From positions 10,108,001 to 10,172,000 of the forward strand of contig CM075992.1 in assembly GCA_038087875.1 (NCBI GenBank): a stretch of DNA of 64,000 nucleotides, written 5' to 3'. Of this stretch, positions 43,659 through 63,077 are shown one piece after another. Position 1 is the stretch's first letter. The number at the start of each line of letters is the position of its first letter. The notes beneath the pieces were generated by a model that saw nothing but the letters and a program-made list of their open reading frames with translations, made no database searches and was not told the DNA's origin. This stretch comes from Malacoraja senta. Lineage: Eukaryota. The translations under genes were made by a program, and so were the position numbers.

Positions 43659-45328
43659 TATTAATCAAGGATCTATCTATCTCTACCTTAAAAATACCCA
43701 CTGACGACCTCCACAGCCTTTTAGGGCAATGAATTCCACAGATTCACCACCCTCTGACTAAAGAATTTCCTCCTCATCTCATTACCAAAAGAATGTCCTG
43801 GATGCTGGATTGCTGGAGTGGAAATTGAGAAAAATGCTGCAGTAACTCAACGGGACAGGTGAATAAAGAGAAAGAAGATGAAACTTTATTGCCTTCCATC
43901 ACAGTGAGGAATGTGGGGAATCTGCCGTGGTGGATGTTTATGTTAACTTTTATGTAGTTGCGTGTCTTGTTGCTTTCCCCCCCATATGGCTGTATGGTAA
44001 TGCGCATATCACTGTACCTTGATTGGTACATGTGACAATAAACGACCTTTGAAACCTCTGACTAAAGAAATTCCTCCTCATCTCCTTCCTAAAGGAACGT
44101 CCATTAATTCTGAGGCTATGACCTCTTGTCCTATACCCTCCCACTAGTGGAAACATCCTCTCCACATCCACACTATCCAAGCCTTTCACTATTCGGTATG
44201 TTTCAATGAGGTCCCCCCCTCATTCTTCTTAACTCCAGCGAGTTCAGGCCCAGTGCCGTCAAATGCTCATCATATGTTAACCTTACTCATTCCTGGGATA
44301 ATTCTTGTAAACCTCCTCTGGACCCTCTCCGGAGCCAGCACATCCTTCCTCAGATACGGGGCTCAAAAGTTCTCACAATACTCCAAATGCCACCTTGCCA
44401 ACACCTTATGGAGCCTCAGCATTACATCCCTGTGTCTGTTTGTACCGCAAGCTTTGGGTAAAAGCACAACATACGATTCTGATGGAGATTCACTGATACT
44501 AAACTTGCATTTACATAGCGCTGGTCAAGATTTTAGAAGGAAGAGGGTGGACCGCTTGAAACTCACCGAATAGTGAAAGATCTGGATAGAGTGGATGTGG
44601 AGAGGATGTTTCCACTAGTGGGAGGGTCTGGGACTAGAGGTCACAGCCTCAGAATTAAAGGGCGTTCCTTTAGGAAGGAGATGAGGAGGGATTTCTTTAG
44701 TCAGAGGGTGGTGAATCTGTGGAATTCTTTGCCACAGAAGGCTGTGGAGGCCAAGACATTGGGTAATTTTAAAGCGGAGATTGATAGGTTGTTGATTAGT
44801 ACAGGTGTCAAAGGTTATGGGGAGAAGGCATGAGAACGCGGTTGAGGTAGAACGATAGTTTAGTTTAGTTTAGAGATACAGCACGGAAACAGGCCCTTCG
44901 GCCCACCGAGTCCGCGCCGACCATCGATCACACTAATTCCATATAATCCCACTTTCTCATCCACTCCCTACACACGAGGGTACAATTTACAGGGGCCAAT
45001 TAACCTACAAACTTGTACGTCTTTGGGATGTGGAAGGAAACCGGAGTACCCGGGGAAAACCCACGCGGTTACCTGAGGTCGGGATTGAACCCGGGTCTCT
45101 GGCGCTGTGAGGTGGTGACTCTACCCGCTGTGCCAACCTGCCGTGCAGTCACGGGAGAGCCCCCACAGTGTAGCCGGGCCACATTGAAGGCCGTATCCAC
45201 GCCGCTCCCCCCCTCCCCGTGACCTTTGCCGTGTCGGCGTTGGGCATCACCGTGGGATGGGATTTGCTGAAATTCTTCTCAACCACCAGCAGGTCCGCGG
45301 TGATCCAGAGCCGGAGCCGCCTGGGAGG

Positions 45329-45359
45329 ATGCGGAGGGAGAGCGGACGCCTGCTTCACG
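45329..45359 (+). CDS. ADGRE/CD97-like adhesion GPCR, coding exon 1 (MRRESGRLLH-A; in-frame upstream ATG at 45257)
   Basis: ATG followed by 10 codons + 1 nt and a consensus donor G|gtaagt. Joins exon 2 in frame to give a basic-then-hydrophobic signal peptide. Confidence 0.6.
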
Positions 45360-47679
45360 GTAAGTCAGCTGCTTCCCCACCCATCCCTCAATGCACGGCA
45401 CCATCCACATATCCCTGCCGCATCGAAAAATAGACCCGGAGAAACAGTCCTCCAGGTTTCCCGAAGCCCAAAGAAATCCCACGCAGGTCACGGGGAGAGC
45501 GTGCAGACTCCGTACAGACAGCACCCATGGTCAGGATGGAACCCGGGTCTCTGGGCGCTGTGAGGCAGCAACTCTACCGCTGCGCCACCGTGCCGCCCCT
45601 ATGGGTGCCCAGGTTGGGTGCCTGAAACATGCTGAGGGAGGGAGGGGGGGAGGGTGGTGGTGGTGGGGACAGATATGATAACGGTGATTAAAATACTATG
45701 AATGTACAGCGAATCAAGGGATGTGGATCGCGTGCAGGTAGATGAGTGTTGGTTCTGAAACTATGTTCAGCACACACGTTGTGGGCCGAAGGGTCTGTTC
45801 CTGTGTTCACTTTAGTTTATTGTCACGTGTACTGAGGTGCAATGAAAAGCATTTTGTTGCGTGCTAACCAGTCAGCAGAAAGACAAAACATGATTACAAT
45901 CGAGCCATTTACAGTGTACAGATACATGATAAGGGAATAACGTTTAGTGCAAGGTAAAGCCAGCAAAGTCCGATAAAAGATAGTCCGAGGGTCACCGGTG
46001 AGGTAGATAGGGCTTGTATTCACTGGAATTTGGAAGGATGAGAGGATATCTTATAGAATCATATAAATTCTTAAGAATTGGACGGGCTAGGTGCAGGAGA
46101 AATGTTCCCCGTGTTGGGGGAGTCCAGAACCAGGGGTCACACAGTTTAAAAATAAGGGGTAGGCCATATAGGACAGATGAGGGTAAACATTTTCACCCAG
46201 AGAGTTCGGAATCTGTGGAATTCTCTGCCAAAGAAGGCAGTGGAGGCTAATTCCCTGGATGTTTTCAAGAGAGAGATTTAGCTCTTAGGGCTAACGGAAT
46301 CAAGGGATACGGGGGAAAAAGCAGGAACGGGGGACTGATTTTGGATGATCAGCCATGATCATATTGAATGGAGGTGCTGGCTCGAAGGGCCGAATGGCCT
46401 ACTCCTGCACCTAATATCTATGTTTCTATGCGTTGTAACATTCTGATGAATTTCATTGCAATAATAACTTACACAATACACTAATCTAATTTGAGCATTG
46501 TTTCCTCTAAAATATTTTCTCTCGTGATAAGAACCATTCTGCAAAGACAAGGCGTGATGGATAGGCTTTGTGTTGCATCGAGCGTGAGATTGGTCAGCTC
46601 GTTTTGCTCAGTGTCTTGTTCACACGATAATCTTGCAACACGCACTGACTGTGTGGATCTCCTCCTTTGATGCTATCTTTGAAGTGTTGTCAGATGTAAA
46701 CATGGTGACGGTTGTGAAATAGCCTCAGTGAGAAAATACAGTGAAGCCTCGTTTTAACGCACCTCTTGAGGACGGATAGGAAGGAACTTAGTTTAGAAGG
46801 AACGCTGGAGTTTCGCTGGAGATCTCATTGAAACGTACCGAATATTGAAAGGCTTGGATATTGTGGATGTGGAGAGGATGTTTCCACTAGTGGGAGAGTC
46901 TAGGACTAGAGGTCACAGACTCAGAATTAAAGGAAGCTCCTTAGGTCAGCATGGACTCAGTGTACCGAAGGGCCTGTTTCAGTGCTGTATATCTCTATCT
47001 ACCTCTACCTTATTGCTCACCGTCCTCCCTGTGACCGTGTGGACTTTCCCCGGGTGCTCTGGTTTCCTCCCTCACCCCAGAGACGTGCGGGTTTGTGGGT
47101 TAATTGGCTATGGTAAAAATGTATAATTGTCCCTAGTATATGTCTGATAGTGCCAGAATGCGGGGATCGCTGGTCGGCACGCACTCGGTGGGCCGAAGGG
47201 CCTGTTTCCGTGCTGTACCTCCAAAGTCTAAAAGTACTGAGTCTTTGGCCTAGATCTTGTTGGTTAGGCTTTTAGTTTAGTTTAGAGCTAGAGCGTGGAA
47301 AAAGGCTCTTCGGCCCATCGAGTCCACACCGACCAGCGATCCCCGTACATTAGCACTATCTTACACACACTAGGGACAATTTTACATTAATACCAAGCCA
47401 ATTATCCTACAAACCCGTACATCTTTGGAGTGTGGGAGGAAACCGAAGATCTTGGAGAAAACACGTGCGGTCACAGTGAGAATGTACAAACACAGTACAG
47501 GCAGCACCCGTAGTCAGGATCGAACCCGGGTCTCTGACGCTGTGAGGCAGCAACTCTACCGCTGCACCACTGGGCCGCCCTTGGGTATCTTCTATTGTTA
47601 GATTTAATATAAAAATACTTAAAATCTATCGTTTGTGAACTGTTCAGGTTGGATCTAAACTATCAATTTCTTTTTCCAG

Positions 47680-47724
47680 CTATTTTCTATTCGATCATTT
47701 GGATTGAACACATTCTTCAATCTG
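47680..47724 (+). CDS. ADGRE-like exon 2 (signal peptide, IFYSIIWIEHILQS)
   Basis: Acceptor tttctttttccag, 45 nt, phase 1-1, donor g|gtgagt. Confidence 0.7.
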
Positions 47725-62290: not shown

Positions 62291-62468
62291 GCGCTCAGTA
62301 ATTTCTCGCAGTCGGTGTTGGCCAGCCCGGAGGAATGGGGCCGCCTGGAGAAGAAGCAGCAGCAGGCAGCGCTTGGCCACTTGCTGCAGGCCATGGAGGT
62401 TGTCATCGCCGACGCAGCCCTCAACCTACTCCGCAACAACAAGACGCGCTATTCGTCGTCCACCATCG
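62291..62468 (+). CDS. ADGRE-like exon 6, GAIN subdomain A (ALSNFSQSVLASPEEWGRLEKKQQQAALGHLLQAMEVVIADAALNLLRNNKTRYSSSTI)
   Basis: Acceptor ctctcctctctcaag, 178 nt, phase 0-1, donor g|gtaagg. Shows the W..L.......A...LL...E helix pattern of ADGRE/ADGRL GAIN domains. Confidence 0.8.
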
Positions 62469-62957
62469 GTAAGGGACACCCCGCACTCCACATCTCTTTC
62501 CCTCCGAACCCCATTCTCCCGCCTTCTCCCCACAGTGGCGCAGCAGTAGAATTGCTGCCTTGCAACGCCGGAGACCTGGGTTCACCTATACAACATCTGT
62601 CCATTCTTATCTGTACAACTTCTTTCCATTCTTATCTGTACAACATCTGTCCATTGATTGACCTGTCCACCATCTCTCTGTTGACGCAATGTGTAGAAAA
62701 GAACTGCAGATGCTGGTTTAAATTGAAGATAGACACAAAATGCTGGAGTAACTCAGCGGGACAGGCAGCATCAGTCTGAAGAAGGGTCTCGACCCCCAAA
62801 CGTCACCCATTCCTTCTCTCCAGAGATGCTACCTGTCCCACTGAGTTACTCCAGCGTTTTGTGTCTATCTTCACCGTTGACTCACCTGTCCACCATCTCA
62901 CTGTTGACTCACCTGTCCAACTTCTCACCACATGTAACCTGTCCCCTTTGCCCGCAG

Positions 62958-63077
62958 CGGTTGATATGGCTTCTCTTCAGAAGGACAAAGTGACGGAGAG
63001 ATCCATCATCTCCCTGACCGCCTACCGCAGCGTCTTGGTGGCTCGCTCCCTCTCGCTGCTGGGACAGGACAATCACG
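62958..63077 (+). CDS. ADGRE-like exon 7, GAIN subdomain B start (A-VDMASLQKDKVTERSIISLTAYRSVLVARSLSLLGQDNH); gene continues beyond window
   Basis: Acceptor cccctttgcccgcag, 120 nt, phase 1-1, donor g|gtacct. In frame with exon 6. Confidence 0.75.

Follow-up and report, generated by a model that had tools for sequence, protein, structure and literature searches.

We analysed a 64,000-nucleotide stretch of the genome of the skate Malacoraja senta (the window; contig CM075992.1, here C16, positions 10,108,001-10,172,000) and found in it exons 1–7 of a 16-exon ADGRE-type adhesion G-protein-coupled receptor (GPCR) gene, together with the remnant of an exon for a TIM-type IgV domain. The seven plus-strand exons of the original prediction proved sound, with GT-AG ends and matching phases, and encode the signal peptide, the stalk and the start of GAIN; the GPS and seven-transmembrane (7TM) exons sought downstream were found beyond the window (Table 1). 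Joined without the IgV piece, the 16 exons are separated by 15 GT-AG introns and give a 660-residue product with zero internal stops, in the order signal peptide, stalk, GAIN, GPS and 7TM, and a one-nucleotide shift of any single acceptor introduces 1–29 stops into this frame. Exon 1 has a second in-frame methionine closer to the hydrophobic stretch, and the weak acceptor of exon 5 has a frame-keeping alternative AG 3 nucleotides downstream.

Exons 6 and 7 were confirmed as GAIN by a custom profile, though Pfam gave no match to exons 6, 7 or 8 taken singly and exon 6 had no match among PDB sequences. The profile was built from 76 receptors outside the TIM-IgV family, each having a single canonical GPS motif preceded by 250 residues or more. 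On it, exons 6 and 7 scored 27.0 bits (best of 200 shuffles, 6.0) and exons 6–9 scored 87.7 bits (best shuffle, 7.3). Pfam GAIN itself was above cut-off in shark models, and the secretin-type 7TM domain (PF00002) was present both in those models and in the downstream exons of the window receptor. As originally claimed, no EGF exon was detected in the window by tblastn with two EGF-bearing skate ADGREs, and identical queries found five EGF exons in a neighbouring ADGRE gene at C16:8.41 Mb. Exons 4 and 5 stem from a single 93-nucleotide exon by tandem duplication (78% identity over 65 nucleotides), also seen in the paralogs; catshark models seem to hold only one such stretch. Contig C16 (12.8 Mb) carries many 7tm_2 exons along its length, consistent with a large ADGRE cluster.

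The IgV exon remnant in the window copy

An IgV exon had been proposed to start at 54263. The predicted peptide is present and in frame after exon 2, and it matches V-set at 24.5 bits (E 3e-5), slightly below the 26-bit cut-off, but the acceptor at 54261-62 is not the exon's own. The remnant has only the first three of the six TIM cysteines, and its WFND site is deleted. Comparison with four close copies in the genome (72–79% identity over the fragment) revealed two deletions. The first, of 27 nucleotides at about 54265-54270, took the true, pyrimidine-rich acceptor that all four other copies use; the second, of about 446 nucleotides after 54363, ran from within the exon across its donor into the intron, taking two-thirds of the exon at the 3' end, and the remnant now continues into repeat-like intron sequence. 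The 27-nucleotide deletion also brought an intronic AG, at 54261-62, up against the exon, and 54263 was rejected as a real exon start because the other copies show that the true acceptor is deleted here. The 17 nucleotides before this AG include 10 pyrimidines, a count that falls inside the span seen at the other acceptors of this gene (the true acceptor has 13), so this AG may still be used. Inclusion of the remnant gives an 87-residue product ending at a TAA stop (54376-54378), and the working product of the window copy, if any, skips it. Within an IgV-bearing family, the window copy has lost its head secondarily; whether it is a working IgV-less receptor we consider evenly balanced. The proposal that the gene encodes a TIM-IgV adhesion GPCR was right for the family, as its paralogs and models from eight species show, and wrong for the window copy, whose IgV is mostly deleted.

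TIM-type IgV domains on predicted receptors of sharks and rays

Searching the 1.94-Gb genome for the IgV, with 150 of 178 candidates scored and the copy count accordingly a lower bound, we found at least five IgV-bearing loci including the window; at least three paralogs keep an open phase 1-1 IgV exon. One of them, at C16:8.616-8.645 Mb on the minus strand, is a recent duplicate with 6.4% divergence in collinear, mostly intronic blocks, and its exons 1–10 form an open 461-residue signal-IgV-stalk-GAIN-GPS frame with a 336-nucleotide phase 1-1 IgV exon. Among the scored candidates, the other ADGRE-like 7tm_2 loci of C16 held no TIM-type IgV outside the copies described, and no RNA dataset turned up as carrying the paralog IgV exon. 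At one of the C5399 copies (L056, C5399:7753-20550) an IgV and a stalk exon join the 7TM exons directly, GAIN and GPS being deleted; a 7TM frameshift is also present, and nothing there matches exons 1 and 2.

A first homolog search with the IgV alone (39 of 191 candidates matched) returned TIM-like proteins and no fused receptor. A 7TM-exon query returned three of 63 candidates, two of which were catshark models with V-set, GPS and 7tm_2, and a HMMER search with a catshark model (best 150 matches) followed by a domain scan identified 10 proteins, out of 154, that combine an IgV with GAIN or 7TM. Altogether, IgV with GAIN and/or GPS occurs in gene models of eight shark and ray species, six of which include 7tm_2 (Table 1), under names such as 'ADGRE1/2/3-like', 'hypothetical' or 'uncharacterized'. 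The predicted combination of IgV, GAIN and/or GPS, and 7TM in a single product exists in models of six species, and descent of the window gene from an exon-shuffled TIM-IgV/GAIN/7TM receptor is supported, since paralogs and orthologs carry the IgV exon in the same slot. No EGF Pfam match was found in the nine IgV-bearing shark and ray models scanned, plus one isoform. The catshark models open with a signal peptide homologous to window exons 1 and 2, followed by IgV, GAIN and 7TM; this match means that exons 1 and 2 belong to the receptor, and the concern that they form a separate TIM gene was not borne out. A further model, Amblyraja radiata XP_032906739.1, is open from GAIN-B to the tail and 86% identical to the window receptor; it begins within GAIN-B and is therefore uninformative on the IgV.

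By its sequence, the IgV of the fused receptors is TIM-type. The top 15 of 60 PDB matches of the skate IgV were all TIM-1/2/3/4 (E 3e-24 to 9e-17; next match 2e-7), and the domain is 40–47% identical to HAVCR1/TIMD4 proteins. In the Cetorhinus protein, residues 29–135 match TIM, and the chain beyond residue 203 matches ADGRL and ADGRE structures. Six cysteines and a WFND metal-dependent phosphatidylserine site are the hallmarks of TIM IgV domains (PMC9611583, PMC4913284). All six cysteines are present in 10 of the 14 fused domains and the N-D of the WFND site in 11. The two loci L058 and L060 (C1951:305459, 363808) are likely this genome's own TIM genes, one with an open IgV exon reading GPFND and one frameshifted. 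Proteins with three to five tandem TIM-type IgV domains, N-D sites being present in most, also came up (P0001-P0003, P0100, P0127, P0129, P0186); three with names are frog 'polymeric immunoglobulin receptor-like' entries, a label that is probably a misnomer.

The two halves of the receptor were placed in separate trees. The IgV tree comprised 78 rows over 111 columns, few for that number of rows, after 25 of 103 domains (near-duplicates, fragments and the window remnant) had been dropped. In it the 14 fused IgVs formed one side of a branch supported at 100/99 and split into rays and sharks; the closest TIM lineage was not settled. For the GPS-7TM half, a quick tree used the 72 of 126 rows with a full core and a careful tree 35 hand-picked rows, with four long receptors as the root, of which three carry the name latrophilin. 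The seven family rows formed a clade (99 in the quick tree, 100/100 in the careful one) nested inside EGF-bearing ADGREs and not with ADGRL, the skates sitting on a long branch, and the ray/shark splits of the two halves matched. Gene structure is consistent with this placement: phase 1-1 is common to the fused IgV exon, the C1951 TIM-type IgV exon and the five EGF exons of the neighbouring ADGRE, three 7TM exons have the same size in the window-family receptor and that neighbour (204, 92 and 169 nucleotides), and several 7TM introns coincide. The simplest history would be a single exon swap, in which an ADGRE gene gained a TIM IgV exon in the phase-1 intron behind its signal peptide and lost its EGF exons. 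This swap would predate the shark–ray split, and, because the direct search left holocephalan and most other elasmobranch genomes outside, its date is bounded only in that way. A common origin with a lungfish receptor that also bears an IgV (XP_043913172.1, P0167) was rejected: its IgV falls outside the fused group, and joint origin of the receptor halves gave p 3e-5 in the approximately unbiased (AU) test. An axolotl ADGRE-like model (XP_069460043.1, P0051) has SRCR and EGF at its N-terminus. The phase 1-1 EGF slot of ADGRE genes would then have taken foreign immune modules repeatedly, namely the TIM IgV, the lungfish IgV and the axolotl SRCR.

Table 1. Features of the window gene (positions within the window unless C16 is given) and IgV-bearing receptor models of other species
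Feature or species	Position or accession	Strand	Remarks
Exon 1, signal peptide start	45257..45359	+	aligns with Scyliorhinus model N-terminus
Exon 2, signal peptide end, phase 1-1	47680..47724	+	
LINE-1-like insertion, intron 2	49510..53904	+	missing at matching place in C16:8.64 Mb paralog
TIM-type IgV exon remnant (5' third)	54263..54363	+	comparison with four genomic copies
Exon 3, stalk, phase 1-0	54949..55016	+	
Exon 4, stalk / GAIN-A start	57126..57218	+	
Exon 5, stalk / GAIN-A start	60845..60937	+	
Exon 6, GAIN-A helices	62291..62468	+	custom GAIN profile 18.0 bits; 44% to Pristis model
Exon 7, GAIN	62958..63077	+	
Exons 8-16, GAIN-B, GPS, 7TM, tail	C16:10172258-10188108		downstream of window
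Scyliorhinus torazame	XP_072347263.1/261.1, GCB80667.1		IgV + 7tm_2
Scyliorhinus canicula	XP_038640521.1		2 IgV, 7TM partial
Cetorhinus maximus	XP_078387311.1		IgV + 7tm_2
Pristis pectinata	XP_051897944.1		3 IgV + 7tm_2
Chiloscyllium punctatum	XP_072420211.1		IgV + 7tm_2
Hemiscyllium ocellatum	XP_060710959.1		IgV + 7tm_2
Heptranchias perlo	XP_067828904.1		IgV, model ends after GPS
Rhincodon typus	XP_048473792.1		IgV, model ends after GPS

The LINE-1-like element in intron 2 shares about 97% identity with another at C16:8.578-8.582 Mb. It contains an N gap (50699-50898) with one and the same 20-mer on either side, a pattern suggestive of a scaffolding artefact. Elsewhere in the window, pieces resembling an LTR (long terminal repeat) retroelement or endogenous retrovirus lie on the minus strand at 28112-33615, with an integrase core at 28112-29059, reverse transcriptase/RNase H at 30057-30665 and a further frame at 32962-33615.

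Possible skate decay, altered pockets and other readings

The best overall explanation, which we regard as moderately probable, is that a TIM-IgV exon occupies the EGF slot of an ADGRE gene, that intact members bind phosphatidylserine and couple to G proteins, and that the window copy is head-less. The architecture itself is very probably real and expressed in at least some elasmobranchs. The observations that weigh against this explanation concern the integrity of the skate loci, the GPS, the lipid pocket and the nature of the outside evidence.

None of the five IgV-bearing skate loci found has an unbroken IgV-GAIN-7TM frame as assembled. The C16:8.64 Mb paralog has four one-nucleotide indels in two 7TM exons and is a pseudogene or mis-assembled; three of the indels are homopolymer-length changes, which may be assembly errors. 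The remaining three IgV copies (two on C5399, one on C2755) have missing exons or frameshifts. The ratio of nonsynonymous to synonymous change (pN/pS) between the window gene and its best paralog is 0.89 over 632 codons, and purifying selection was not demonstrated.

The GPS is altered as well. The consensus CxCxHL/T(S) with two disulfides is common but not universal (PMC13197933, section 7), and the strand behind it, the Stachel, has the consensus TxFxxLM (PMC13197933). The window receptor reads TCTYNTL/SSF, lacking the histidine and two of the four cysteines, and the skate GPS scores 21.2 bits in Pfam, below the 22.5 cut-off. HL/S occurs in only four of the 11 family rows, all of them sharks; the histidine is gone in carpet sharks, sawfish and skates, the last having also lost two cysteines, and, of 96 other hits whose motif can be read, 94 keep it (in 45 further hits the motif was not readable). 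The strand after the site reads SSFAVLM in most shark rows and Pristis and SSFALLL in skates. From these motifs, self-cleavage is predicted for the sharks that keep HL/S and is probably absent from rays, skates and carpet sharks.

One alternative draws on most of these points: the receptor works in sharks and sawfish, and the skate cluster, window copy included, consists of recent duplicates decaying to pseudogenes. We regard this as a real possibility, although the balance tilts somewhat against it. Damage somewhere in all five loci, the pN/pS, the degenerate skate GPS and the long skate branch favour decay; however, 660 codons remain open in the window copy, its 15 introns are GT-AG, and the Amblyraja model, open from GAIN-B to the tail, shares the altered GPS, so that the alteration is older than the split of the two lineages. 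Decay in skates would, moreover, be compatible with the best explanation as far as sharks are concerned.

The pocket raises a different question. The W-F pair of WFND is found in none of the 14 fused domains, being replaced by LF, PF, IF, PI, LW or LG; LGND stands in the Pristis domains and in the best skate copy. In two skate copies a tyrosine replaces the C46-equivalent cysteine, and two carpet-shark models lack both the B-strand cysteine and the aspartate. Three skate copies differ from one another at 13 of 27 loop columns versus 15 of 80 framework columns (Fisher p 0.005), and loop pN (16–23%) exceeds that of the framework (2–6%) and the divergence of introns (6.4%). These features, together with an IgV number varying from one to three and the reported existence of a protein ligand, CD300b, for TIM1 (PMC2901072), would fit the same architecture with another ligand, the IgV being a diversifying protein- or microbe-binding head that binds phosphatidylserine weakly or no longer at all, most of all in rays and skates. 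We consider this reading unlikely: N-D is retained in sharks and rays both, and free-standing TIMs in the same alignment are often LFND or PFND too. The loop excess was not significant across five genera (p 0.18), and Ig loops vary anyway. Loop pS is raised as well, on few sites, and we rejected the loop variation as proof of positive selection since synonymous change is also elevated.

An annotation artefact, in which predictors merged a TIM-like gene or stray exon lying in or before an ADGRE gene, is very improbable: although all outside support consists of automated gene predictions, two ending after the GPS and one with a truncated 7TM, the IgV exon joins the stalk exon in phase with no mucin or transmembrane exon required, the domain order is the same in eight species and recurs in two separate S. 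torazame annotations, the trees of the two halves match in their ray/shark splits, the genome's own TIM-type exon lies on a separate contig (C1951) and is 46% identical to the fused IgV, and no second signal peptide or EGF exon precedes GAIN.

A putative tether-and-signal receptor and its relation to known systems

Under the explanation favoured above, phosphatidylserine would be a true ligand of the intact shark members, which we hold slightly more probable than the contrary. The fuller proposal, a single-chain receptor that would both tether dying cells and signal, built once, long ago, in sharks and rays by placing the TIM phosphatidylserine pocket on an adhesion-GPCR switch, falls just short of an even chance. 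In such a receptor the CC'/FG pocket of the IgV would bind to exposed phosphatidylserine through a metal ion that N-D holds in place, tethering would load GAIN, and the Stachel strand would then engage the 7TM, passing the pull or contact to the G protein. Expression in leukocytes and a G12/13-type output are suggested by analogy to ADGRE5, for which G13 coupling is known (PMC13197933, table). The window copy, if expressed, would act as a head-less receptor.

If this is right, one protein does the work for which TIM-4, described as a tether that has no signalling motif (PMC4913284), depends on a partner receptor, and an adhesion GPCR becomes available whose lipid pocket is predicted and defined in structural terms. 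How N-terminal ligand binding activates adhesion GPCRs is still open, and the ligands of most are poorly defined. A TIM-pocket chimera would offer a cheap, titratable ligand in the form of phosphatidylserine liposomes or apoptotic cells, its site could be knocked out by an established mutation (N-D to A-A), and GAIN coupling would be directly testable in cleavable shark versus non-cleavable ray forms; cleavable and non-cleavable, one- to three-headed and head-less forms would together make a natural series on ligand-pull activation. For comparative immunology, an elasmobranch receptor lineage has been hidden under automatic 'ADGRE3-like' names.

As the original prediction supposed, we found no description of a TIM-IgV adhesion GPCR in the full-text literature searched, which leaves most subscription journals outside. 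The words 'shark', 'cartilaginous' and 'immunoglobulin' are absent from the main text of a survey of vertebrate adhesion GPCRs (PMC8584163), whose supplements may list such sequences; the excerpted text of a 2026 review names I-set and C1-set as the only Ig domains (PMC13197933), and that of a zebrafish repertoire has no 'V-set' (PMC4335454). The novelty is one of recognition, not of sequence, since the proteins are already public with automatic domain calls; what is newly recognised is an elasmobranch ADGRE lineage with a TIM-type head.

Among known systems, a figure legend lists sponge adhesion GPCRs with V-set hits (PMC4302439). The lungfish receptor likewise carries an N-terminal V-set on an adhesion GPCR (IgV, EGF, GPS and 7TM); its IgV, however, lies outside the TIM-fused group and is presumably CD300/pIgR-like, and an EGF domain is retained. 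Phosphatidylserine recognition on an adhesion GPCR, predicted here for the fused family, is known for ADGRB1 (BAI1) and ADGRG1 (GPR56) (PMC13197933, PMC9723945), and BAI1 signalling is modulated by phosphatidylserine exposure (PMC9723945). These receptors belong to other subfamilies, however, and bind the lipid through thrombospondin repeats or the GAIN region (PMC13197933), with no IgV. With TIM/HAVCR proteins (TIM-1, TIM-3 and TIM-4) the fused receptors share, in most domains, the six cysteines and the N-D of the phosphatidylserine site, and also a single phase 1-1 IgV exon, but they lack the mucin stalk, the single transmembrane helix and the tyrosine tail; stalk, GAIN and 7TM follow the IgV instead, the W-F pair is altered, and the output would be that of a GPCR. 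Likeness to the ADGRE/EGF-TM7 receptors (ADGRE1-5, CD97) extends over the GAIN-GPS-7TM core, which is nested among ADGREs, has ADGRE1 and ADGRE5 among its best PDB matches, shares intron positions with them and lies on a contig with many ADGRE-like 7TM exons. Unlike ADGREs, the fused family is without EGF and carries one to three TIM-type IgV domains in the phase 1-1 slot, and its GPS motif has degenerated in the rays, the skates and the carpet sharks.

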